64,000 nucleotides of DNA, taken from contig JAUWCU010000003.1 in assembly GCA_030609135.1 (NCBI GenBank), positions 55 to 64,054 of the forward strand. Reading direction: 5' to 3'. The notes under the pieces were generated by a model, which saw only the letters and a list, made by a program, of their open reading frames with translations, was not told the DNA's origin and ran no database searches. Origin of the DNA: Candidatus Stahliibacteriota bacterium (GTDB taxonomy: Bacteria; Hydrothermota; Tepidihabitantia; SM23-42). The translations under genes were made by a program, and so were the position numbers. Shown here in pieces: positions 1 through 62,453 of the stretch (positions within the stretch are counted from its first letter, which is position 1; each line of letters starts with the position of its first letter).

Positions 1-2372
1 GTAGCCGTATACGGGAACCCCGAATGATATGAGATTATGAAATCTGTGGAAAAATCCCTTAGTGGACTGAGATAGAAATCATCAGGGAGCATAATTCCAA
101 CGCTTGAATTTACAATGTGTCGTTCATCAAAATCCAACCAGTAATCAATCCGTGGTAAGGCGTATTCACCAGATATTGGATCCGGACCTCCAACATAAAC
201 ATCATAATAATGCTGCCAGGCATAAGAAGCAGTACCTTTGGCAAATTGCAATGTATAGGACAAATCAAAACGCCAGTAATCCAACATCTTTTTCTTGATA
301 GTAAATTCAATACCTTTTACATTACCGTAGTCAACATTCGTAACCTGATAATAAGGATAAGGCTGGGACAGTACCCTACGTGTTTGAATGAGGTCGTAGA
401 TATCTTTGTAATAAGCAACAAAACCAAAGGCAAAAGCATCAGATATTTGATTCTCATAACCCAATTCATAGGCAATTGTTTTTTCAACTGTAAGGTCAGG
501 ATTGCCAAGGACTGAGTTATATCTATGGAGAAGTAACCAGACAACGACCGGATTGGTTGAACGATAGAGGTTGTGTGCTGTGGGGGTTTGAAAGAAATGC
601 CCATAATTGAACCGTAACTTTGATCTCTCGGTAATAGGCATTGAAAATCCGAGACGGGGAGAAAAACGCCATTTAGCTGGGTATTGAACCATGGTTGTGT
701 CATCCATGTCTGAAGGGTTGTTCAAACCACTTGCCTTTGAATCGAAATAGTCGTAGCGAAGACCGATTCGACAAATAATACCTTCAAAATCTACCCTGTC
801 CTGTAAATAGACGGCTATTTTCAAAGGGTTTTTTTCATAAATGTCCCAGAAAGGGATTCTTGCCCAGGGCAGGTTATTGTCAAACCAGCCCACATTTTGA
901 GACATCAGGCTAACCCCGGATTTAACTTCGTGTATTTTAGCGATTGATTTTGTGATAGAAAAAACTCCTTGATAATCACGGTTATATAAATACCTCCAGA
1001 GCCTATTATCGCCTACAGTATAATAAAAACCGGTTGCTCCAAACGGGTTATTTCTTAAACTTGCAGCATTACGCTTACTCCATTCCTCGTAATAATTCAT
1101 CATGGAATCAACAAGATAAAGTTTTATCAAGGAATCATCTTCCATTTCCATTAACAGTTCAGGAAAGTGGTTGGCTTTAAAAATGTAGTCATCATACCAT
1201 TGCCTGTTCGCAGCTGCTTCTGCTTCGAGATCTCTTACTGCGTAAAACCGGATTGATTTTGTGTAACCCAGTTTCGATTCCAAAACAGTATTCTTTGTTA
1301 ACATATAATTAAACGTCACACTGGCGAGATAATTCTTCAGAGTTTCCGCCGTATTACGTTCAAGATTGTATATGAAGCTGAGATTACCCCAGATGTCTTT
1401 GTAGTGTGCGAACTGTTCACGGGAATAGAATCCGGAAAGAGTAACCTTGCCTTTTGCACCGGGCAGACGATAAGATACTTTTCCACCTAACTTGTAATCA
1501 AACCTTTCAGATTGAATTTTATATTTTGCTGCTTCAAACGCATCAGTTATCAGTGCTTCACCCGAGATAAAATATCTAAAACGGGATTTCTCCAATGCTC
1601 CACCCCCGAGGCTTATCTCATAAAGATTGTATCCATAATTTATTTTATCCGAAGCAAAGACCTCGTCGGTAGTATAACGGAATCTGCCACTTGGTTTCGC
1701 AGAGCCTTCACGCGTTATGATGCTAACGATTCCGGATAGAGCTTCACCGTATTCTGCGTCAAAGCCCCCCGTGGTTATTGCAATTTCTTCAACCGCTTGT
1801 TTATTTATTTTCACTGACTGATGACCATAATGCGGTGCTTTAGTGAGTATTCCATCAACATAATAGGCGATTTCTGTATCCCGACCGCCCCGGACATGAA
1901 TTCCTCTTTCACTGGTTGATACACCTGCCTGCAGGGTGATAATTTCGTTAATATCGCTTATCGGCATCATGTCAATATCGTCACCCGTTATGGTCCTCTG
2001 GGTCTGCGTCTGGGTTTTAATAACCAAGGGTCTTTCCGCGTTAACAACTATTGGTTCCATGGTAATTACTGCGGGGCTCAGCGTAAAATTAACAAAAACT
2101 GTCTGGTCGGAAAAAACAATGGTGTTGGATTTCGACACCGTGTTATAACCCAAATAAGACGCGGTTATTGTATGCATACCCACTGGGACAAAAGGTACGA
2201 TGAATTCGCCCTCCAGATCAGTGGCAGCACCCAATTCTGTTTTTTCAATTACGACGTTCACCCCAACTAAGGCTTCGCCATCTTCATCAATTACTTTTCC
2301 TTTTACTTGTCCTGTATTCGATGCTATTACAAAAGAGAAGATTACACAAACCGCGATAAAACATCTCTTCAT
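1..2372 (-). CDS. TonB-dependent outer-membrane receptor with N-terminal CarboxypepD_reg-like domain; C-terminus lies beyond the window edge
   Basis: Not in ORF track (no stop inside window). Hand translation from ATG at 2372 (GGAGGT 4 nt upstream): MKRCFIAVCVIFSFVIASNTGQVKGKVIDEDGEALVGVNVVIEKTELGAATDLEGEF.., then plug-like ..TITGDDIDMMPISDINEIITLQAGV..IHVRGGRDTE..FDAEYGEALSGIVSIITREG. The same frame was checked open at nt 3-116; the middle was not fully verified. Confidence 0.8.
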   Translation of the reverse strand, partial: MKRCFIAVCVIFSFVIASNTGQVKGKVIDEDGEALVGVNVVIEKTELGAATDLEGEFIVPFVPVGMHTITASYLGYNTVSKSNTIVFSDQTVFVNFTLSPAVITMEPIVVNAERPLVIKTQTQTQRTITGDDIDMMPISDINEIITLQAGVSTSERGIHVRGGRDTEIAYYVDGILTKAPHYGHQSVKINKQAVEEIAITTGGFDAEYGEALSGIVSIITREGSAKPSGRFRYTTDEVFASDKINYGYNLYEISLGGGALEKSRFRYFISGEALITDAFEAAKYKIQSERFDYKLGGKVSYRLPGAKGKVTLSGFYSREQFAHYKDIWGNLSFIYNLERNTAETLKNYLASVTFNYMLTKNTVLESKLGYTKSIRFYAVRDLEAEAAANRQWYDDYIFKANHFPELLMEMEDDSLIKLYLVDSMMNYYEEWSKRNAASLRNNPFGATGFYYTVGDNRLWRYLYNRDYQGVFSITKSIAKIHEVKSGVSLMSQNVGWFDNNLPWARIPFWDIYEKNPLKIAVYLQDRVDFEGIICRIGLRYDYFDSKASGLNNPSDMDDTTMVQYPAKWRFSPRLGFSMPITERSKLRFNYGHFFQTPTAHNLYRSTNPVVVWLLLHRYNSVLGNPDLTVEKTIAYELGYENQISDAFAFGFVAYYKDIYDLIQTRRVLSQPYPYYQVTNVDYGNVKGIEFTIKKKMLDYWRFDLSYTLQFAKGTASYAWQHYYDVYVGGPDPISGEYALPRIDYWLDFDERHIVNSSVGIMLPDDFYLSPLRDFSTDFIISYHSGFPYTA

Positions 2373-12770: not shown

Positions 12771-12798
12771 ATCATAATTAAAATCGTCACCAAGTCAA
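12771..12798 (-). promoter_or_regulatory. recA promoter
   Basis: Minus strand reads TTCCCCTTGACTTG..: TTGACT-N16-TATGAT, then AAGGAGG before the ATG. It overlaps the phoU stop. Confidence 0.55.
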
Positions 12799-13454
12799 GG
12801 GGAAGTAGGGTTATGATGTTTTATTACTTTTCCCTCCACTGCAAATATTACCTCTTCACAAATATTTGTGGATAAATCAGCAATACGTTCTAAATTTTTT
12901 GTAATATTAAGTAAATGGAAAGAACGTTCAATAGTGGTTGCGTCTGAAATCATATAAGTGATTAGTTCTCTTAAAATCTGATCTCGCAAGGCATCTACAA
13001 CACTATCTCTTTCACAAATACCCTTAGCCAATCCGGGGTTTTCATTTATAAAAGAATTTATACTGTCATTTAACATTTTAATTACTTCCTCTGCCATCCT
13101 TGGTATATCTATTAAGGGTTTAACCAAAGGTGTTTCTATTAAATACAATGCGCTCTGCGAAATATTTACTGCATGATCTGCAATTCTCTCCAGGTCATTA
13201 TTCATTTTTAATATCATTAATATTGTCCTTAGATCTATTGCTCTGGGTTGAAACTTAACAATGAGTGTTATACATATTTCATCTAATTCTATTTCAAAAT
13301 CGTTTGCATTAGGTTCATCTTTTTCTATTATGCCAGTGAGTAATTCCACGTTTTTTTCTACTAATCCTTTAATACTTTTCTCGACCATACTCACAACAAG
13401 ACAAGTGTAATCGACAAGCCTCTTTTTAAGCTCGTTTATTTTTTCCTCTAACAA
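12795..13454 (-). CDS. phoU: phosphate signalling regulator PhoU
   Basis: 219 aa with two ERIADxxxNI repeats; follows pstB. Confidence 0.9.
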   Translation of the reverse strand: MLEEKINELKKRLVDYTCLVVSMVEKSIKGLVEKNVELLTGIIEKDEPNANDFEIELDEICITLIVKFQPRAIDLRTILMILKMNNDLERIADHAVNISQSALYLIETPLVKPLIDIPRMAEEVIKMLNDSINSFINENPGLAKGICERDSVVDALRDQILRELITYMISDATTIERSFHLLNITKNLERIADLSTNICEEVIFAVEGKVIKHHNPTSP

Positions 13455-13465
13455 TCAATACCTCC

Positions 13466-14296
13466 TTATCCAAAACGTCCGGTTATATAATTTTCTGTTA
13501 GCTTTTCTTTTGGGGCAGTAAAAAGCTTTGTTGTTTCGCCAAACTCGACCAACTTACCCAGGTAGAGAAACCCCGTGTAATCTGAAATTCTTGCTGCCTG
13601 CTGCAAGTTATGAGTGACAATAATAATTGTATATCTTTGTTTAAGGTTAATCATTAAATCTTCTATTTTTGCTGTGGAGATAGGATCCAGGGCAGAACAC
13701 GGTTCATCAAACAGGATGACTTCAGGCTCAATTGCTAAAGCGCGGGCAATACAGAGTCTTTGTTGCTGTCCACCGGAAAGAGAAAATGCTGAATCATGTA
13801 AACGGTTTTTCACCTCATCCCATAAAGCAGCTGATTTTATAGCAGAAACAACTCTTTTTTCAATTTCTCTTTTATTTTTTATACCGTGTAGTCTTAACCC
13901 AAATGCGAGATTTTCAATGATTGATTTGGGAAATGGATTCGGTTTTTGAAAAACCATCCCAACTTTCTTTCTAAGTTCATACGGTTCATAATTGGGATCA
14001 TAAATATTAATATCATCCAAAATAATTTTACCTGTTATTCGTGCTGAAGGTATAATGTCATTCATCCTGTTTAAGCAGCGAATAAAGGTAGATTTACCAC
14101 AACCAGAGGGTCCGATGATTGCGGTAATACTATTACATTTTATATTAAATGTAACATCTTTTAAAACATGATTTTTACCGAAAGAGACATTTAATTTTTC
14201 AATTTTAAGACGCGTGTTATTTTTATCGCATTTAGACGTAGTGTCTAATAACGCAGGTATTATTTTTGGAGGATTGATATTTGCTACTTTTACCAT
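13466..14296 (-). CDS. pstB: phosphate ABC transporter ATPase
   Basis: [30 protein letters not shown]. Confidence 0.95.
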
Positions 14297-15207
14297 AATT
14301 TTTTCTTCCTTGCTCTTGTTCTTATTATGATTGCAATAAGATCCAGTCCTAAGACTAAAAGGAGAAGGACTAAAGCACTACCATAGGCAATTGGAATCTG
14401 TTCCTTAGGATGTGTACCTTCTGTCACTAATGCATAAATATGGTATGGAAGTGCTTGAACTTCAGAAAGAATCGATTTGGGCAGTTTCCTGGAAAAGAAG
14501 GTTACTGCAGTAAAAAGTATTGGTGCGGTCTCTCCTGCTGCCCTGCCTATCCCTAATATTGTTCCTGTGAGAATGCCCGGAAGTGCCGCTGGTAAGATAA
14601 TACCTCTAACCATTTGCCATTTTGTAGCACCAACACCATAACCTGCTTCACGAAATGAATCGGGTATAGATTTTAACGCTTCTACTGTTGTGCTAATAAT
14701 GACCGGCAGAATCATAATTGCCAGGGTCAGTGAACCGGATAAAAGGGATACTCCAAATCCGAAAAACTTAACAAATATTGCCAAACCAAAAAGACCGAAT
14801 ACAATAGAAGGTACACCCGCAAGATTGTTTATACCCATTTTTATTATTCTCACCAATGTGTTGGCACCGGTATATTCATTTAAATATATCGCCGTAAGAA
14901 TACCAAGCGGCAGGGCGAAAATAACAGCTCCTAATGATAAGTAGAATGTGCCGAGGATTGCCGGTAATATGCCTCCTTTTGTCATTGCCTGTCTAGGCAT
15001 GGCTGTTAAAAATTCGATATTTAAAACGCCTGCGCCGCGTACGGCTATAAAAATCACAATTATGAAAAGGAAAAATATAGTTACGATGAGTGAAAGAAAT
15101 AGTATAGAAATACCAATTTTTTGAACTAATCTCCGGTGATTTGCATACGATTTTATATTTAAGGGTGTATTCAACGCCGGTGAAATTTCCATTGCCCGAT
15201 TCTCCAT
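14290..15207 (-). CDS. pstA: phosphate ABC transporter permease PstA
   Basis: 305-aa polytopic permease with an EAA-type loop ([14 protein letters not shown]); operon position. Confidence 0.9.
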
Positions 15208-15209
15208 GG

Positions 15210-16097
15210 CTATCTGGTTGCTGTAAATTTTTTATGGAATTGATAAGAGATTCGGTCGGCAATGAAATTGAAACATAAGGTCATTATGAATAATACAATA
15301 GCAATACCAAAGAGGGCATAATAATGCTCACTGCCCATTACAGTCTCTGCCATTTCAGAAGCAATTGTTGAAGTCATTGCCCGCACTGGTTTTAAAAACG
15401 AGAAGACTATTCTTGCAGAACCACCGGCAACCATCAAAATAGCCATTGTCTCTCCAATTGCCCGGCCAATCCCTAAGATTAAAGCCGTAGAAATACCTGA
15501 AGCTGCGGCCGGCAACGTAATCTTAGTCATTGTCTCCCATTTGGTAGCTCCAACAGCAAAAGCCGCTTCTTTATATTCCTTTGGGATTGAAGAAAGGGCA
15601 TCTTCAACAATACTGGTCACTGTAGGTAAAACCATTATCCCCAGAATAATCGCTGCAGAAAATGCAGTAAGCCCAATAGGTAAATTGAATAGCTTCTGAA
15701 CAATTGGGGCTATTAACAACACACCGAAAAGTCCATAGATAACTGAAGGGATACACGCAAGGAGTTCAACAATCGGCTTCATTATTTCCTTGAGCCAAAA
15801 AGGAGCAACTTCAGCTATATATAAGGCACTGAGGATACCAAGAGGTGCAGCAAAAATTAATGCGCCGAGCGTGATGATAAGTGAACCGTAGATCATGGGA
15901 AGGATTCCAAATTCAGCATATTCGTGTGTTGGATACCAATGTGTGCCAAATAAAAATTCTCCAATACCTACATACTTTAATATGGGTAGCCCCTGAGTAA
16001 ATAGAACGATAACAATACCGCCAAGAAAGAGAAGCGAACTCAAGGCGCAGAATAGTAGTATTGATTTGATTATTAATTCTTTTAGTTTTCTACTCAT
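15210..16097 (-). CDS. pstC: phosphate ABC transporter permease PstC
   Basis: 295-aa permease with ..YKEAAFAVGATKWE..; operon position. Confidence 0.9.
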   Translation of the reverse strand: MSRKLKELIIKSILLFCALSSLLFLGGIVIVLFTQGLPILKYVGIGEFLFGTHWYPTHEYAEFGILPMIYGSLIITLGALIFAAPLGILSALYIAEVAPFWLKEIMKPIVELLACIPSVIYGLFGVLLIAPIVQKLFNLPIGLTAFSAAIILGIMVLPTVTSIVEDALSSIPKEYKEAAFAVGATKWETMTKITLPAAASGISTALILGIGRAIGETMAILMVAGGSARIVFSFLKPVRAMTSTIASEMAETVMGSEHYYALFGIAIVLFIMTLCFNFIADRISYQFHKKFTATR

Positions 16098-16188
16098 GTT
16101 CAGTCAATCTTCTTCCTTTTAATTAAGTAACAGTTTAGTTTTTCAAAACCTGTCCTGGTCCTGAATTAAGTTCAGGACAGGTCAAGAT

Positions 16189-16256
16189 TGTAGTGGTCGG
16201 ATTCATCCGACATTAATAAAAATGTGCAATAAATTGCACCGCTACAATTATTAATT
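16189..16256 (+). repeat. REPIN-like doublet in the pstS-pstC spacer
   Basis: TGTAGTGG-tcggattcatccga-...-gtgcaataaattgcac-CGCTACA. More hairpins lie on both sides (gtcctgaattaagttcaggac; accccgtaggaca..tgtccaacggggt). Confidence 0.7.
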
Positions 16257-16445
16257 GTACAACCATCTGAATATTGACATCTGTACTTTTTAATTTGTTC
16301 AAAGATAAACCCCGTAGGACATTTGCTGTCCAACGGGGTAAAGCCTTCTCCACGGTTCAAATTAGATACAAAAGCTTTTTGCTTTAGCAATAGCTGTTCT
16401 ATTTTATACATATCACCGCGGAGAAGACTTTACCATTATCTCTAT

Positions 16446-17240
16446 TTATTTAACTGGCACAAAACCAGCTTCTTGAACGATTTTCTGTCCTTGTTCTGAC
16501 ATGATAAAATCGATAAAATCCTTGGCTAAACCATCTGGTGAACCATTCGTATACATGAAAAGTGGACGGGCAAGTGGATAAGTTTCATTCCTTACAGTCT
16601 CTTCTGAAGGTGTTATACCATCAACCTTTAATGCCTTGACCTCGTCACTCAAATAACCAAGTCCAACATAACCAATTGCACCAGGTGTTTGGGCAACAAT
16701 TCTGGCAACCTCAAGATTTGATATAAGCATAAGTGCACCATCAGTCACTTTTGCTTTATTTAATGCCAGTTTGTTAAAGGTCTCAAATGTTCCTGATGCT
16801 GCATCTCGCGAAATCACGACAATTGTCCCAGAACCTCTGCCAATTTTATCCCAACGGGTAACTTCACCAGTGTAGATTTTTTTCAGATCCTCTTTTGATA
16901 TCTCATTTAAGGGATTATCAGGATGAACAATAACCGCAATGCCATCACGGGCAATGATATTGGCAACAGGATTCACGCCTTTTTCTCTTGCTTTTTTGAT
17001 TTCTTTTGTCTTCATGGGTCTTGAGGCATCTGCAATATCTGTTGCTCCATCAATAAGTGCTGCAATTCCTGTTCCTGAACCTCCCCCACGGATTGTAATG
17101 TCCGCTTCAGGGTTATTATCCATATAAACCTCTGCAGCATACTGTGCTATTGGAAGCACAGTTGTTGAACCCTGGATTGTCAGTTTCTGGGCAAAAAGCC
17201 CAACTGATAATACCAAAGCAAGAAAAGATAGTTTTTTCAT
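16446..17240 (-). CDS. pstS: phosphate-binding protein PstS
   Basis: Start moved to ATG 17240 (GGAGAAATA upstream). Signal peptide MKKLSFLALVLSVGLFA; GSTTVLPIAQ and GGGSGTG motifs. Confidence 0.9.
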   Translation of the reverse strand: MKKLSFLALVLSVGLFAQKLTIQGSTTVLPIAQYAAEVYMDNNPEADITIRGGGSGTGIAALIDGATDIADASRPMKTKEIKKAREKGVNPVANIIARDGIAVIVHPDNPLNEISKEDLKKIYTGEVTRWDKIGRGSGTIVVISRDAASGTFETFNKLALNKAKVTDGALMLISNLEVARIVAQTPGAIGYVGLGYLSDEVKALKVDGITPSEETVRNETYPLARPLFMYTNGSPDGLAKDFIDFIMSEQGQKIVQEAGFVPVK

Positions 17241-17364
17241 TATTTCTCCTTTTGAATCTTTATTAAAATAAAGATTCAATGATTGCAATGTTTTTTTTAG
17301 ATTACAATGACAATTTTTCATTTTTATATTAATCGTTGTAATCGTTTAATGATCGCTGTAATCA

Positions 17365-17389
17365 AAAATATGTTTTGAAAACATATTTT
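17365..17389 (-). terminator. AT-rich perfect hairpin at the porin stop codon (attenuator/terminator candidate)
   Basis: aaaatatgtttt-g-aaaacatatttt, 12-nt arms. The stem is weak and A/U-only, with no separate U tract. Confidence 0.25.
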
Positions 17390-18363
17390 CAATATGAATA
17401 CTTAAACTGGATCATTGCCTTATCCGAAGAATCGCTGTCGTCCTCATACGTCTTTATCTGATAATTAACCTGGGTTAAAAGAGTATTAGAGATTTTATAA
17501 TTAAAACCTCCAATAATCCTATTATGTGCATCATCATCAGTATCAACATCTTTGTCAAAGTAATCATACCTGCCAAGAATACTGAAATTTTTATTAATGG
17601 CAATTTCTCCAAGCCCTGTATAACCCATTCCTTTTATTTCGTCGTCTTCTGTTCCAAGATATTCTGCGATCAGTGTTACTGGTCCGTATTTCAATTGCAA
17701 GAGTCCTGCATATCTGTTTTGATCGACCTGTGTTACTATTGTATCACCCGCTGGCTGATCTGCATACCAGTAAGAACCTTTGAACATAACTCCTGGTATA
17801 GGGATCATTGCCAAATTTGCGCATAGAGCTTTATTCGTATTATTTTCTGTATAAGAATAACCATTTCCATTAAAGACCTGAACAGCAAATTCACCATATC
17901 CACCTGGCAATAGTCCATAAAAACCAACACCTAAATCCGCACTGTTTGTCTTCTTTTCAACCTCTTCTAAATTCTTCTCGATTACTGGATATTTCCAGAT
18001 ATCCATCATTCCAAAATAGACCTTTTGCAAACCAATAATTAGTTTTGCATCAGGTATGTATTCACCTATATAGGGAAGTTTCCAGTCTGCCTGGGCATAC
18101 TTTAATCTGACACGCCAGTCTGATTTATTTGTCGCACTACTTTTCTGAGCAATGTCTATGGTTCCTTTAAAAGAAACCGGTTTGGTCTTTGTTTTCCAGC
18201 GGATATAGCCTCTTTTGATTGCGAATTCGTGTTCATTCTCATCAACCTCGGGTGTGGTAGGATTTTCATAAGTATACCGACACCAGAAATAGCCGTATAT
18301 TGGTGCATCTGCATAACTAAAAACAGCGCACCCTAATAATAGAACCAACAAAAGCTGTTTCAT
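17389..18363 (-). CDS. Outer-membrane porin, probably phosphate-selective (first gene of the pst operon)
   Basis: Signal peptide MKQLLLVLLLGCAVFSYA; beta-barrel-like composition; C-terminal ..FKYSY. The phosphate role is inferred from position and the Pho-box. Confidence 0.55.
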   Translation of the reverse strand: MKQLLLVLLLGCAVFSYADAPIYGYFWCRYTYENPTTPEVDENEHEFAIKRGYIRWKTKTKPVSFKGTIDIAQKSSATNKSDWRVRLKYAQADWKLPYIGEYIPDAKLIIGLQKVYFGMMDIWKYPVIEKNLEEVEKKTNSADLGVGFYGLLPGGYGEFAVQVFNGNGYSYTENNTNKALCANLAMIPIPGVMFKGSYWYADQPAGDTIVTQVDQNRYAGLLQLKYGPVTLIAEYLGTEDDEIKGMGYTGLGEIAINKNFSILGRYDYFDKDVDTDDDAHNRIIGGFNYKISNTLLTQVNYQIKTYEDDSDSSDKAMIQFKYSY

Positions 18364-18398
18364 TAAGCCTCCTTTCTTATAATATAATAATACTATAT

Positions 18399-18437
18399 GG
18401 TTAATGTATGATTAAGAAATTGTTAAAATATGGTTAA
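18399..18437 (-). promoter_or_regulatory. Pho-box-like array: four direct hexamers with 11-bp phasing
   Basis: Minus strand reads TTAACC-atatt-TTAACA-atttc-TTAATC-ataca-TTAACC, then an AT-rich -10 region and AAAGGAGG before ATG 18363. Confidence 0.6.
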
Positions 18438-18531
18438 CCCCGTTAGAAATTCAAACGGCAAATTTATGATCTATCTATAAATATTTGTGTTTTTTAAATC
18501 ATTCAGGTTGTTTAAAAAGTCATTTTTCACT

Positions 18532-18669
18532 GGAGTAGAGCATTTATGCTCGCCCCGTTAAATAAAGGTATAGCAAAATGTTTTTGGTATAGTGAAATTA
18601 GTATTTAAACGGGGCTCGTGAAAAACGATGAAATTTCATTGCTTTTAACGGGGCTAAAGCCCCTACTCC
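18532..18669. repeat. Large composite palindromic element (GGAGTAG ... CTACTCC) enclosing five small hairpins
   Basis: Inner hairpins: agcatttatgct; ccccgttaaata..tatttaaacgggg; tcgtgaaaaacga; tgaaatttca; ggggctaaagcccc. Confidence 0.65.
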
Positions 18670-18719
18670 ACTAAATCAACAGCCTGATTAAATCATTTTT
18701 CTCGCAGTTATTGGGATTT

Positions 18720-20441
18720 CTAACGGGGTAAGATAATCGTAACTTTTGAGCCTTTATTGACTTTGCTCTCAATCTTTATCTCACCTTTATGTACCTGGAC
18801 AATATGTTTTACAATAGCAAGGCCAAGTCCTGTCCCTCCCATTTTTCTTGAACGCGATTTATCCACTACATAGAATCTTTCAAAAATCCTGGATAAATGT
18901 TCTCCTGAAATACCTATACCAGTATCCTCGATTCCTATTTTTACAGATGAATTTATTTGATCTACTGTTATTGTAATACCACCTTTTTCAGTATATTTGA
19001 GGGCATTGTCAATTAGATTAATAAACATTTGTTCAAGCTTAAATGAATCTGCCCTGATTACAGGAAAATTATCTGCTATGTTGAGTTTGAAATATAGATT
19101 TTTTTCTGTTAATCTTTGATTGAACATTTTGAATATATTATTAACAAGCTTCTGTAAATTTACGTTTTCTAACTCCAGGTTTTCCTTCTCCTCAAGTTCT
19201 GAGAGCAATTGTAAATCCTGCACGATATTTATGAGTCGATCTGTATGTCTTTTGATGATATCAAGATAATGTTTCGTTTTTACATTTTTTTCTTGTTCCA
19301 GTGTTTCTACAAATCCTTTTATTGCAGTAAGTGGTGTTCTTAATTCATGTGATACATTCGCGACAAAATCTTTTTTCATCTTTGTTACCTGTAAAATTTC
19401 TGTAATATCATGTAAGGTTAGTACGATCTGCTCTGCAGAACTCAAAAAAGCAGCACTACATATATAATTTCTCTCATTTATTTCTATTTCTTCATTTGCT
19501 ACAGTATTTTCCCTGCCAATATTTCCTATCAATTTGCCAAGTTTAAGTGACCTTATTAATTCCCAGTAGAATTTACCTTTGACTGCTGTATTGTTCACGA
19601 TTTTTCCAAAGCTGTTATTACTCAATAAAATTTTACCCTTTTTATCCAGGACCACAATACCCTCCTGAATCGAAGCGATGATTATATTTAAAGCCTCTTT
19701 TTCCAGTGATAACTCAGTAACGAGTTTTTTAATCTGGGTAACCATATAATTAAAACTCTCAGCAAGTTCTCCCAACTCATCTTTGCGTTTTGAAAGTATC
19801 ATTACATCAAAATCTCCAGCAGCAACGCGATGCGATGCATTAACTAATTCGCCAATAGGTTTTGATAAACTTTTAGAAAAAATTGCCGCTACAAAAAGGG
19901 ATACAGCTATTATTATAATTGCAATTTGAAGAATTTTTGTCTTTAAATTGTTGAGTAAACCATTTATCTCGCTCAAGAATAAACTTACCCTCAAAACACC
20001 TAATACCGCATCTTCTTCATTGATTGGTATGGCGACATACAACATTTCTTCTTTTATAGTTCGGCTAAACCGTATCGACTTCCCTGTTTTCCCTTCTAAT
20101 GCCTGGATTATTTCTAATCTCGTACTATGATTCTCCATAGCTTTGGGGTCTTTTTCAGAATCTGCTAAGACCATTCCGTCCGGGGCGATTATTGTAATTC
20201 TTGTACCTATTTCTGCGCCCAGTTCTTTTACAAGAGTATCTAATTTGTCGAATTGATTTTCTCTTACCAGAGGTGTTACTTTTAATTTTAAGGTAGTGGC
20301 AAGATTTTTTAAATCATTAGTCAGGGTTTGAATGTAGTGATCTTTTATTGTTGCAAAGGTAAAAACCAAAATCAAAACAGAGAGTAAAAGAGTTATTAAA
20401 AGATAGCCACTAAATATTTTGAAAAAGACAGACCTTTTCAT
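18720..20441 (-). CDS. phoR: Sensor histidine kinase, PhoR-like (TM-HAMP-PAS-HisKA-HATPase)
   Basis: H-box SHELRTPLT; G-box GGTGLGLAIVKHIV; two N-terminal TM segments. The PhoR assignment rests on adjacency to the pst operon. Confidence 0.7.
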   Translation of the reverse strand: MKRSVFFKIFSGYLLITLLLSVLILVFTFATIKDHYIQTLTNDLKNLATTLKLKVTPLVRENQFDKLDTLVKELGAEIGTRITIIAPDGMVLADSEKDPKAMENHSTRLEIIQALEGKTGKSIRFSRTIKEEMLYVAIPINEEDAVLGVLRVSLFLSEINGLLNNLKTKILQIAIIIIAVSLFVAAIFSKSLSKPIGELVNASHRVAAGDFDVMILSKRKDELGELAESFNYMVTQIKKLVTELSLEKEALNIIIASIQEGIVVLDKKGKILLSNNSFGKIVNNTAVKGKFYWELIRSLKLGKLIGNIGRENTVANEEIEINERNYICSAAFLSSAEQIVLTLHDITEILQVTKMKKDFVANVSHELRTPLTAIKGFVETLEQEKNVKTKHYLDIIKRHTDRLINIVQDLQLLSELEEKENLELENVNLQKLVNNIFKMFNQRLTEKNLYFKLNIADNFPVIRADSFKLEQMFINLIDNALKYTEKGGITITVDQINSSVKIGIEDTGIGISGEHLSRIFERFYVVDKSRSRKMGGTGLGLAIVKHIVQVHKGEIKIESKVNKGSKVTIILPR

Positions 20442-21124
20442 TCTTCTACTTTATATCCTATCCCTCTCACATTTTTAATGAATTTGCCAGCCTTACCCAA
20501 TTTTTCCCGTAAATGTTTAATATGAACATCTATTGTTCTATCAATGACAATTTTATTTTCACCCCAGAGAGAATTCAATATTTGTCCTCTTGAAAACACC
20601 CACCCTTTTCTTTCGGATAACGTTTTTAGGATTTTAAATTCGGTTGATGTTAAATCTATTCTTTCTCCATTAACCTTGACTTCGAATTTTTGTAAATCTA
20701 TTACAAGAATTTCACCTATTTCAATCTTCTTTACCTCTTGTTTTTGCTCTTTTCTTCGTAAAACTGCCTTTACCCGTGCAACAAGTTCCCTTGTAGAAAA
20801 TGGTTTGGTAACATAATCATCTGCACCCAGTTCCAGTCCTAAAACCTTGTCTGTTTCATGACCTTTTGCCGTAAGCATAATAATCGGGAGAGATGAAAAT
20901 TTATCTTTCATTTTTAAATATTTACAAATATCAAAACCATCTGCATCGGGCAGCATTAAATCAAGAATCAAAAGGTCTGGGATGTGGTAATTTAGAAATT
21001 TTAAAAAACTACCGGCATCTGAAAACCCCTTAACTACAAAATTCGCTTTTTTAAGGTGAATAGATACCAGTTCTAAAATATCCGGTTCATCATCAACAAT
21101 TGCTATTAGTTTTCCCATAAACAT
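20438..21124 (-). CDS. phoB: OmpR/PhoB-family response regulator
   Basis: Receiver motifs DDEPDIL, DLMLPDADG, LTAKG; winged-helix end ..RGIGYKVEE. ATGA overlap with the kinase gene. Alternative start at 21118. Confidence 0.75.
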   Translation of the reverse strand: MFMGKLIAIVDDEPDILELVSIHLKKANFVVKGFSDAGSFLKFLNYHIPDLLILDLMLPDADGFDICKYLKMKDKFSSLPIIMLTAKGHETDKVLGLELGADDYVTKPFSTRELVARVKAVLRRKEQKQEVKKIEIGEILVIDLQKFEVKVNGERIDLTSTEFKILKTLSERKGWVFSRGQILNSLWGENKIVIDRTIDVHIKHLREKLGKAGKFIKNVRGIGYKVEE

Positions 21125-21140: not shown

Positions 21141-21168
21141 ATATTATGAATAAATACGTGCAAGTCAA
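21141..21168 (-). promoter_or_regulatory. promoter of the phoB/phoR-like operon
   Basis: Minus strand reads TTCCCCTTGACTTG (the same 14-mer as at recA): TTGACT-N16-TAATAT. Confidence 0.45.
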
Positions 21169-21326: not shown

Positions 21327-21354
21327 TTGACACCTTATTAACACTTGTTATAAT
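21327..21354 (+). promoter_or_regulatory. promoter of the lipoprotein gene; leaderless-type spacing
   Basis: TTGACA-N16-TATAAT, then 6 nt before ATG 21361. It starts 10 nt after the MITE-like element. Confidence 0.65.
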
Positions 21355-21360
21355 ACTTAT

Positions 21361-22773
21361 ATGAAGAACATAGTATATATAGTTCTATCAGTAATTTTGG
21401 TCGTGAATTGTAGTGAAATGGAGACCAAGTGGGAAGTAAAATTCGAACCAGCAGGTCCAGGTAATTATCGAATCAATGGGATTTCTTCTTCAAAGACATA
21501 TACTACTCCAGACAACTACGACCACCGAGTCAAAGGAGTTCCTTGTTCAAGGACACATTCTTATGTTGTTACTGGGGCATTTTGGGAAGATAAGCAGGAA
21601 TCAGTCTGCATTACTGCAAACTATGATGCTAATGGTGAACTCATCTGGCACACAGTCTATGAATCGCATGGCTTGAAATCTTCGAAAGGAAATGCTATCC
21701 GTACCATCACAGGTGAAATTGAAGAGGTTAAACATGACATTTATGTACTAGCACAAACCACTGACTTAAAAGGTATCAACGCCGTAGTCCTGATACAATA
21801 TGACAGCCTTGGTAATATGCAATGGGACAAGGTTATTGAAAAATCCCGAGGAGAGATAACGAGTGTATTGCTGAACGACCACTTGAATAACCTCTATATA
21901 GCGGGCTGGACAAGTAATTCCGCAAATTCTACAGATATCTTCATTGCCAAATATCGACCTTCAGGAGAACTGGCTTGGTTGAACAAATATCATAACCCTC
22001 CTCTTGTTTTTAATACCTTAGTGTTTTGCTCTAGCAAGAATGACCAGTTTCTGGTTGCCGGTCATCTGAGACATAACAAGGATTTCTTTTTCATGAAATA
22101 TGATAGCCTTGGGAAACTTGTGCATCTGACAAAGTGCGAAACTTCTATGCAGGAGATTTCATTGGCAGATGCACAACTTGATGAACATGGTAATGTTTAT
22201 CTTCTGGGCACAACCCACAACAATAAAACTGGCAAGGATTACGTAACTGTAGTCTATGATAAAAACGACAGTCTCCTATTTGAGAAATGCTTTGATGGAC
22301 CAACGCATCATGACGATGTCGCCAATGCCTTGATTGTGGAGGATTCGTACGCGGGGTCATTGTATGTCTATGCTATCGGCAGCAGTGAGAACGAAAATGG
22401 CGTGAGTGAAGTGCTTACCGTGAAATATGATCTAACCGGCAACGAAATATGGACAAAAGCATTCAAGGGGAGAAAAAACGAATCAGCAAAACCCTATCTG
22501 CACGGTCCCAGAATAATCTATTCTCCAACACAGCACGGCGTCAATAATTTCTACATAACCGGATATGTGGGCGATGATGCATTGGTTTTGAAACACAATA
22601 CTAAAGGATTTATTTCCTGGTTTACAAGATACGCAAAGGTTGGCACAGTATGCAAGCCAACCGCATTCAGAAGTTTCTGCGTTGGTATAGAAAGCGTGTC
22701 AGATAAGGGGTCTGATGCATACTTAATAAAATTCGGAAAAACTGAACAGCTCGGCATTATCCGCTGGGATTAA
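21361..22773 (+). CDS. Lipoprotein with beta-propeller-type repeats
   Basis: Lipobox-like MKNIVYIVLSVILVVNC. Recurrent ..KYDxxGxxxW.. strands (IQYDSLGNMQW, AKYRPSGELAW, VKYDLTGNEIW). Confidence 0.5.
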   Translation: MKNIVYIVLSVILVVNCSEMETKWEVKFEPAGPGNYRINGISSSKTYTTPDNYDHRVKGVPCSRTHSYVVTGAFWEDKQESVCITANYDANGELIWHTVYESHGLKSSKGNAIRTITGEIEEVKHDIYVLAQTTDLKGINAVVLIQYDSLGNMQWDKVIEKSRGEITSVLLNDHLNNLYIAGWTSNSANSTDIFIAKYRPSGELAWLNKYHNPPLVFNTLVFCSSKNDQFLVAGHLRHNKDFFFMKYDSLGKLVHLTKCETSMQEISLADAQLDEHGNVYLLGTTHNNKTGKDYVTVVYDKNDSLLFEKCFDGPTHHDDVANALIVEDSYAGSLYVYAIGSSENENGVSEVLTVKYDLTGNEIWTKAFKGRKNESAKPYLHGPRIIYSPTQHGVNNFYITGYVGDDALVLKHNTKGFISWFTRYAKVGTVCKPTAFRSFCVGIESVSDKGSDAYLIKFGKTEQLGIIRWD

Positions 22774-31950: not shown

Positions 31951-32137
31951 ACAAGTGTTTTTTAACAGAATTATTAATAGCTATCATTATGGTGAGTTCT
32001 CGACAAGCCCCGTTAAATAATAGAGATCGATTTATGATAGAAGCAAAAAAGCGGGTTTAATGAGATGATAGATTTACTCGGAGGTGTAATATCTTGTATT
32101 TAACAGGGCAAGCTATCTCGATTTTACTCGATACAGG

Positions 32138-61618: not shown

Positions 61619-62038
61619 TTAGGTAGATTCTAAGTAATTTACAATTGCTTGGGCAAAGCTATTGAAATCAGCTAATTGATTCTGTAGGATATCATAAACC
61701 TGATTGGGATCAGTATAAAGATAATTATGCACTAAAATGTTTCTAAAACTAACCATACCTTTAATTTTCTTAATCAATTCTTCTGGCAACACGCCATTTT
61801 TGCCTAAAACAACAAAGATATTTTCCTGTTCATCTGGCACTAATAGATTTTGTCCAGCAATAATGTAATTAGCAATGTCAATACAGGTTTGCATAGCTAC
61901 CTGAAAATTTCTTTCAGCAATATCCTGGTAATCTTGATTATTGGTATATTCATCCTTTGATATTCGTTGAATTCTTTTCAGCCTTGATACGGCATGATCG
62001 AGTTTTTTTAATCGCACCTCAATAACCTTTTTATCCAA
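61619..62038 (-). CDS. hepT: HepT-type (DUF86) ribonuclease toxin
   Basis: 139 aa; Rx4HxY motif FRNILVHNY near the C-terminus; overlaps the upstream MNT gene by 8 nt. Confidence 0.85.
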   Translation of the reverse strand: MDKKVIEVRLKKLDHAVSRLKRIQRISKDEYTNNQDYQDIAERNFQVAMQTCIDIANYIIAGQNLLVPDEQENIFVVLGKNGVLPEELIKKIKGMVSFRNILVHNYLYTDPNQVYDILQNQLADFNSFAQAIVNYLEST

Positions 62039-62453
62039 TGCCTACCTCTTTGATTTTTTTCTTTAAATACCTTGAATGAAACTCAAAATATTTCTTATAA
62101 TCGTAATACAATCCCATTGAATATGCTTGGAATAGCGCCCTTTTGTTTTCATCTTTCTCATAAATTAATTGTCCCTTTTCAAAAACCTGGGCCCTTAAAA
62201 GTAGATTTGCAAAGTTCAAAATTACAAGGTCAACTTTTCCTTTTAATAGCTCCATTAAATCTGTACTAAGATTCATTCGATAGAACAGTGGATTCTCTAT
62301 TTTCTTTTCATTAATCAATAGCGCGATATCAATGTCACTATCTTTTCTTTGTTTCTTTTCAACTACTGAACCAAATAAATAAGCCGAATAAATTTCAGGT
62401 TTTGTAGTAAAATATTTCCGGAGTTTTTCAGTTATTTCCAGTTGGAATTTCAT
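62031..62453 (-). CDS. mntA: MNT-type nucleotidyltransferase antitoxin
   Basis: LFGSVVEKKQRKDSDIDIALL (GS-x10-DxD). Confidence 0.85.
   Translation of the reverse strand: MKFQLEITEKLRKYFTTKPEIYSAYLFGSVVEKKQRKDSDIDIALLINEKKIENPLFYRMNLSTDLMELLKGKVDLVILNFANLLLRAQVFEKGQLIYEKDENKRALFQAYSMGLYYDYKKYFEFHSRYLKKKIKEVGIG

Follow-up and report, generated by a model that had tools for sequence, protein, structure and literature searches.

The window analysed here, a stretch of 64,000 nucleotides from a bacterial contig, encodes on its minus strand an outer-membrane porin followed by pstSCAB and phoU and, immediately upstream of the porin, a response regulator and a sensor kinase. Four short direct repeats lie between these two groups of genes, and they raise the question of whether the operon is governed by a Pho box and, if so, which regulator would dock on it. 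By its named homologues and genome loci, the window belongs to candidate division WOR-3, with a Candidatus Stahlbacteria metagenome-assembled genome (MAG) as the source of the closest locus. MAGs appear to be all that is known of WOR-3 (Stahlbacteria and relatives), since every related locus and every named homologue that was retrieved is a MAG, and a literature search found nothing combining WOR-3 with a Pho regulon.

Four phased repeats precede the porin-pst operon

Read on the minus strand, positions 18437..18399 are TTAACC-atatt-TTAACA-atttc-TTAATC-ataca-TTAACC, that is, four hexamers in exact 11-bp phase with 5-bp spacers, and 35 nt separate the end of the last hexamer (18399) from the ATG of the porin gene (18363). 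Downstream of unit 4, the same strand continues as atatagtat-TATTAT-attataag-AAAGGAGG-ctta-ATG. The initial annotation, made from the letters alone, had described this arrangement as a candidate Pho box, and its coordinates, the 11-bp phasing and the distance of ~35 nt to the porin start are all as we read them. Its wording of the units as TTAAC[AC]-type holds for units 1, 2 and 4; unit 3 is TTAATC, so the repeats are not strictly TTAAC[AC]. The generic pattern TTAAYM-N5, repeated four times, has a single exact match in the 64-kb window and none in 100 dinucleotide-preserving shuffles of it. When the orthologous sites are turned into a four-unit position weight matrix, the window site, itself one of the 14 training sites, scores 40 bits, the maximum in 20 block-shuffled windows being 13.6. 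The features of the locus are collected in Table 1.

Table 1. Features of the porin-pst locus and its upstream region, in order of position in the window
Feature	Position	Strand	Basis or remark
phoU	12795..13454	-	Pfam, NCBIfam
pstB	13466..14296	-	Pfam, NCBIfam
pstA	14290..15207	-	Pfam, NCBIfam
pstC	15210..16097	-	Pfam, NCBIfam
pstS	16446..17321	-	Pfam, NCBIfam
Outer-membrane porin gene, 324 aa, first of operon	17389..18363	-	Homologues; weak OmpO-family match
Shine-Dalgarno sequence AAAGGAGG	18368..18375	-	4 nt before ATG 18363; kept in all aligned loci
Inferred -10 hexamer, TATTAT	18384..18389	-	Conservation; 9 nt after unit 4
Putative Pho-box unit 4, TTAACC, promoter-proximal	18399..18404	-	8-bp form aTTAACCa; consensus TTTAA[T/C]A
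Putative Pho-box unit 3, TTAATC	18410..18415	-	8-bp form cTTAATCa; orthologue consensus CTTAATCA
Putative Pho-box unit 2, TTAACA	18421..18426	-	8-bp form tTTAACAa; orthologue consensus TTTAACA
Putative Pho-box unit 1, TTAACC	18432..18437	-	8-bp form gTTAACCa; orthologue consensus CTTAACCA
Palindromic insertion, ~290 bp	18437..18729		Between kinase stop codon and unit 1; outside box
Sensor histidine kinase, sCache-HAMP-HisKA-HATPase	18720..20441	-	Pfam, NCBIfam
OmpR/PhoB-family response regulator, presumed box binder	20438..21124	-	Pfam, NCBIfam
Sigma-70-type promoter of the regulator-kinase operon, TTGACT-16-TAATAT	21141..21168	-	Ordinary type; without TTAAC repeats
Extended sigma-70 promoter, TTGACA-16-TG-TATAAT	21327..21354	+	Perfect, 12/12

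The gene calls of Pfam and NCBIfam bear out an operon in which a porin heads pstSCAB-phoU, as initially annotated, the porin being recognized through its homologues. Many of these (59-72% identity to the window porin) contain PF07396, Porin_O_P (phosphate-selective porin O/P); the window protein has no match of its own in Pfam at E values up to 10, PF07396 included, and the call thus rests on the PF07396-bearing homologues together with the weak OmpO-family match. Past phoU, the genes for RecA, RecX and AlaS follow on the minus strand. The gap between pstS and pstC (16098..16445) is unusually long, with 348 nt of non-coding sequence, no Rfam match and a weak hairpin followed by a T-run at 16239..16224 (minus strand), and gaps of 100-530 nt separate the two genes in all related loci. 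Judging from this arrangement, the gap could be an attenuator that gives an excess of pstS transcript.

The repeats are conserved in WOR-3 and are lost together with pst

From an alignment of porin homologues, 15 related WOR-3 loci from species-representative genomes were obtained. Four TTAA[C/T] units in 11-bp phase stand directly before the porin start in 13 of them, with porin identities of 52-87% among the box-bearing loci. Anchored on the units, the consensus reads tCTTAACCAT-att-TTAACA-.T..-CTTAATcA-..g.-TTAAta-(9 nt)-TATAAT-(about 7 nt)-AAAGGAGG-(4-8 nt)-ATG. The average information per column is 1.79 bits for the 20 core positions and 1.56 for the -10 hexamer, against 0.47 in the linkers and 0.22 in the 22 nt upstream; pairwise identity follows the same order, with 0.91 for the TTAAY cores, 0.81 for the -10, 0.34 for the spacers and 0.27 for the upstream flank. 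Since spacers and flank are near-random next to conserved cores and a conserved -10, the unconstrained positions have been randomised among these genomes, and by this comparison the repeats are real, non-random and under strong purifying selection. The TTAAC core of unit 1 is retained in 13 of the 14 aligned loci, and position 5 of unit 3 is an invariant T (14/14). Moreover, odd units favour CTTAAYC and even units TTTAAYA (Fisher p of 0.003 and 0.001, values that overstate independence, as the 14 aligned loci are phylogenetically related). This alternation gives a 22-bp super-period, which is what would be expected for two dimers.

The -10-like hexamer begins exactly 9 nt past the fourth hexamer in all 14 sequences. 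Its context was aligned against L136-L138 and L001, and the hexamer is TATAAT in L136 and L137, two relatives with 96% identity, versus TATTAT in the window.

In all 11 loci that reach far enough, a tblastn search with the window proteins recovered the box followed by porin-pstSCAB. The box is absent in exactly two loci, L005 (4001..6313) and L008 (157..2421), where recA comes directly after the porin gene and the locus has neither pstSCAB-phoU nor the regulator-kinase pair; the short spacer there suggests that the porin gene may be co-transcribed with an unrelated upstream gene. In the window and in seven loci, the regulator-kinase pair is the immediate upstream neighbour. Four others (L004, L007, L010 and L011) have the box with no such pair within 4 kb, and adjacency is therefore not universal. 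Taken over all loci, these positions tie the box to the porin-pst promoter rather than to the 3' end of the kinase gene.

A recent palindromic insertion lies next to the repeats

In the window, a palindromic insertion separates the kinase stop codon from unit 1. Its ends are inverted repeats of 19 nt (ACCCCGTTAGAAAT...), it contains GCCCCGTTAAA / TTTAACGGGGC pairs internally, and its predicted fold has an energy of -88 kcal/mol (z = -8.1). The insertion reaches precisely to the first T of unit 1, without disrupting the box. In the 96%-identical L136 and L137 the insertion is missing and a 101-bp spacer is found instead, and in L138 it is shorter; the insertion is recent and looks like a MITE- or REP-like element within a pre-existing terminator-like hairpin. 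The internal 11-mer pair recurs at 32007 and 32099 of the window.

Given that the insertion stops so precisely at the first unit, the repeats might be taken for a part of this mobile element, or for a chance feature, with no regulatory role in either case. We regard this as practically negligible in probability, as it is already at odds with the comparative data: the insertion-free relatives have the same box, the box is conserved over the whole range of porin identity given above, and the shuffled sequences never yield the pattern.

A promoter with a conserved -10-like hexamer and repeats in the place of the -35

A consensus scan found no sigma-70-type -35/-10 pair before the porin gene, in agreement with the initial annotation, in which no -35 hexamer had been seen in the usual place. 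The expected -35 position reads ATCATA and is covered by unit 3. The neighbouring promoters of the window have a good -35, so the organism does use such elements. One of them is the promoter of the regulator-kinase operon; the other precedes a gene for an SBBP beta-propeller lipoprotein (21361..22773), divergent from the regulator gene, and served as our internal reference for a constitutive promoter in this organism. An Rfam scan of the window matched one tRNA only, and no known RNA element was found in the leader or in the intergenic regions.

On the coding strand, the four units span about -60 to -22, with the proximal pair over the -35 region. Judged by its elements, namely direct repeats, no -35 and a good -10, the porin-pst promoter is built as an activator-dependent one. 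As repressors can act at the -35 region too, which the site covers in part, and the sequence is A/T-rich with helical phasing, the repeats could also have a negative or architectural role, either as the operator of a repressor or as a phased A/T-rich UP-like or bending element that works without a dedicated activator. This we hold to be very unlikely, considering that the TTAAY word is what is conserved (0.91) while the A/T-rich spacers drift (0.34), that, lacking a -35, the promoter would be weak unless helped by an activator, and that promoters activated by PhoB or PhoP show this same arrangement of direct repeats on the coding strand, at about -60 to -22 (PMC1906773, PMC4415409).

The adjacent two-component pair as the presumed binder

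The initial annotation spoke of a PhoB/PhoR-like pair immediately upstream. This stands in so far as an OmpR-family regulator and a kinase are adjacent there and their best NCBIfam models are PhoB for the one and PnpS/PhoR for the other, and it has to be weakened in so far as the scores stay below the curated equivalog cut-offs for PhoB, PnpS and PhoR alike. The regulator reaches 238 bits with PhoB (TIGR02154), versus a cut-off of 296; the best models of the kinase are PnpS (358 bits, cut-off 400), WalK and PhoR_proteo (285 bits, cut-off 334). In its combination of an extracytoplasmic sensor domain with HAMP, the kinase is laid out like PhoR of Bacillus, and the regulator has the signature residues of a receiver domain and a winged-helix output domain.

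The closest solved relatives of the regulator are BaeR (the best), RegX3, MtrA and RpaA rather than PhoB; for the DNA-binding domain alone, BaeR and ArlR come first and E. coli PhoB lower. By this measure it is a generic OmpR/PhoB member to which BaeR, ArlR, RegX3 and PhoB are all similar, and hence the structures do not decide orthology. The recognition helix of the regulator, DRTIDVHIKHLREKL, resembles that of PhoB, DRTVDVHIRRLRKAL, a likeness that we treat as a lead only. The assignment as a Pho regulator is thus based on PhoB as the best family (below cut-off), on gene adjacency and on the joint loss with the box.

With these limits in mind, the repeats could instead be the operator of a different OmpR-family regulator that answers to another signal (envelope stress or general nutrient limitation), the adjacent pair controlling something else. 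The PhoB equivalog cut-off was missed and the best solved relative is BaeR; the four loci named above have the box without the adjacent pair; and among the metagenome matches listed (see below) fourfold TTAAT repeats also stand before FG-GAP/ASPIC and TolC-like genes. Nevertheless, no NCBIfam model scores higher than PhoB for the regulator or than PnpS/PhoR for the kinase, the box stands in every case at the head of the pst operon and disappears along with pst and the regulator pair, and the unit sequence closely resembles the published Pho boxes of two phyla (PMC1906773, PMC12404567). We therefore consider a different regulator unlikely.

The reading that we prefer is that the four repeats are a Pho box, a docking site for a phosphorylated regulator of the OmpR/PhoB family, to which we give a probability of about 0.8 on the sequence evidence. 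It agrees with the initial proposal and draws on the conserved position, phase and orientation of the units, on the fixed -10 and on the joint loss with pst. The most likely binder would be the adjacent regulator, an assignment that we make with somewhat lower confidence than that of the box itself. Under phosphate limitation, the kinase would phosphorylate the regulator, and two regulator dimers would bind head-to-tail on the four 11-bp units. The promoter-proximal dimer, lying over the missing -35, would then recruit RNA polymerase to the -10 hexamer (18389..18384), the porin-pstSCAB-phoU operon would thereby be switched on, and PhoU and Pst would feed back on the kinase. In this scheme, we infer the binding, the dimer stoichiometry, the activation and the phosphate signal by analogy with PhoB, PhoP and SphR.

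Comparison with known Pho boxes

The PhoP core site of Bacillus consists of four repeats for two dimers on the coding strand, at about -60 to -20 of activated promoters, and the four-unit layout at about -60 to -22 here matches it. The half-site named in the initial annotation agrees with the literature: PMC12404567, citing Liu & Hulett 1998, gives the B. subtilis consensus as TT(A/T/C)ACA-N4-6-TT(A/T/C)ACA. Relative to this half-site, the four units have 5-bp spacers and the second is exactly TTAACA; 5, 6, 4 and 5 of the 6 positions are matched in units 1 to 4. This makes the site PhoP-like, with a trailing ACA that is not conserved, units 1, 3 and 4 ending in C-C, T-C and C-C instead. The setting differs as well, as the organism here is diderm, its operon is headed by a porin and phoU is present, whereas B. 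subtilis is without phoU (PMC4415409).

In E. coli, PhoB binds tandem 11-nt units made of 7-8 conserved bases and an A/T-rich linker (PMC1906773, PMC4415409). The likeness of the WOR-3 site to this PHO box (Makino 1988; Blanco 2002; reviewed in PMC4415409) lies in the 11-nt direct repeats and in the replaced -35; the E. coli box also controls pstSCAB-phoU and is bound head-to-tail by a winged-helix regulator of the OmpR/PhoB type. The 9-nt gap to the -10 here resembles the rule for E. coli, where the box sits 10 bp upstream of the -10 (PMC1906773). The differences are in the word and in the extent. The core is TTAAY and not the CTGTCAT of E. coli, which was not found in the units, the pst promoter has four units versus a minimal two, and, unlike in E. 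coli, the regulator operon showed no autoregulatory box; the architecture alone is common.

The closest published match is the Pho box of cyanobacterial SphR. For Synechocystis PCC 6803, Suzuki et al. 2004, as summarised in PMC1906773, describe at least three tandem 8-bp units CTTAACCT (PyTTAAPyPy[T/A]) with 3-bp linkers, and the predicted cyanobacterial boxes include TTTAACTAgccCTTAATCAtttCTTATATT of Prochlorococcus (PMC1906773, Table 1). Set against this consensus, the window has the units gTTAACCa, tTTAACAa, cTTAATCa and aTTAACCa with 3-bp linkers; the WOR-3 orthologue units CTTAACCA and CTTAATCA fit it too, and the Prochlorococcus unit looks nearly identical to them. The SphR box thus shares with the WOR-3 box the 8-bp unit with 3-bp linker, the 11-bp period, the number of at least three units and the location upstream of pst operons, and the cyanobacterial Pho-box operons also include porin, phoA and other genes (PMC1906773). 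Unlike the SphR box, the one described here belongs to the phylum WOR-3 and has four units that alternate between CTTAAYC and TTTAAYA; its position, very close to the -10, is fixed and its leader short, in contrast to the 50-400 bp that separate many predicted cyanobacterial boxes from the start codon. As is expected of a Pho box in general, the site in the window consists of 11-bp tandem repeats, lies in the -35 place upstream of a putative -10, and stands before pst.

As a conserved and probable docking site of such a well-known kind, the finding is real but ordinary; the architecture is textbook, and the understanding of Pho regulation is unchanged by it. For a phylum without experimental genetics, the phylogenetically footprinted box supplies a concrete cis-element and a matrix from which the phosphate-starvation regulon could be predicted, and it marks porin-pst as a reporter of phosphate limitation in metatranscriptomes. 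In addition, a third, distant phylum is added to the users of the TTAAC-type word.

Similar four-unit boxes in metagenomes

Metagenomes were searched with the pattern TTAAY-N6 repeated four times, followed by N10 and TANNNT, which gave at least 120 loci and at least 122 site groups. Among the site groups listed, 35 of 122 (about 30%) are perfect 11-bp satellite arrays and were discarded, which leaves 87 others, 65 of them with a downstream ORF. Satellite-like TTAAT arrays with the 11-bp period occur, for instance, in L026, L035, L042, L064, L073, L090 and L103, in some cases at contig ends. Such arrays are unrelated to promoters and must be filtered from any pattern-based search for Pho boxes.

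By Pfam and BLAST, the first downstream ORF is phosphate-related at 11 of the 65 sites among the matches listed (five PstS, one PstC, three Porin_O_P, one PhoX and one Na/Pi-cotransporter-PhoU), compared with none of the 25 divergent control ORFs at the same listed sites (Fisher p 0.02); against an assumed background of 0.5%, the enrichment among the matches listed has a binomial p of 3e-14. At two more of the listed loci (L101 and L130), pst genes are found further along the operon. None of the listed contigs is from WOR-3, and identity to the window proteins is at most 58%. The search thus supports a general Pho-box signature in several lineages and not the WOR-3 regulon itself.

Some individual loci are worth recording. 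In L047 (2609..3097), on a high-GC contig, phoX and pstS diverge, and a separate four-unit TTAAC box stands before each of them. Four-unit TTAAC/TTAAT boxes also precede three SusC-like TonB-dependent receptors (CarboxypepD_reg-Plug-barrel; L022, L025 and L049), which hints at a possible Pho-regulated outer-membrane uptake in those lineages. A different group is formed by 4 x 11-bp repeats of TTTAAT[C/T]C (L017, L018, L057, L071, L084, L095, L104, L108, L117 and L135), which precede genes for FG-GAP/UnbV_ASPIC lipoproteins (confirmed in L071, L095 and L108) and probably TolC-like (OEP) genes. A TAnnTTTG-like motif comes after the repeats in L017, L084 and L135. These repeats probably belong to the regulon of another OmpR-family regulator, and since the generic pattern also stands before genes such as FG-GAP/ASPIC and TolC-like ones, which are probably unrelated to phosphate, it is not specific to Pho.

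It is tempting to see in the TTAAC-type box with fixed -10 spacing a deeply shared code of the PhoB family, used by Cyanobacteria, Bacillota, WOR-3 and further uncultivated lineages, from which the proteobacterial CTGTCAT and the actinobacterial GTTCACC would be derived. We regard this as doubtful. If it were true, one pattern would read Pho regulons from metagenomes of unculturable organisms and would bring in unexpected members, such as the SusC-like TonB-dependent receptors and an ArsC-like gene in a WOR-3 relative (see below), and the CTTAAYC / TTTAAYA alternation would mean that the two subunits of a dimer recognize the DNA asymmetrically.

Further candidate sites in the window and in related loci

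Matrix scans of the 64-kb window with one to four units gave no other credible site. The one candidate to exceed the shuffle maximum, 62007..62039 (plus strand), scores 15.6 bits versus 13.5, lies within two overlapping minus-strand ORFs and was set aside as chance. The matrix scan likewise found no autoregulatory box before the regulator gene, where the ordinary promoter of Table 1 is located. Among the best 25 of the 68 Pfam families, no other phosphate gene was seen in the rest of the window, so the lack of further boxes there is uninformative. In roughly 120 kb of related loci, the matrix scan gave no further significant site; a candidate at L007:1009 is intragenic and was rejected.

Arsenate is an analogue of phosphate, and in L015, positions 1684..1716 (minus strand), two or three TTTAAC units (TTTAACGcaatTTTAACAtttcTTTTATC) stand before an LMWPc/ArsC-like gene (1185..1643, minus strand). 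This gene diverges from the porin promoter, and the distance from unit to -10 is unlike that of the porin promoter. The units may represent a possible second member of the regulon or a product of chance, and we note them as a weak lead.
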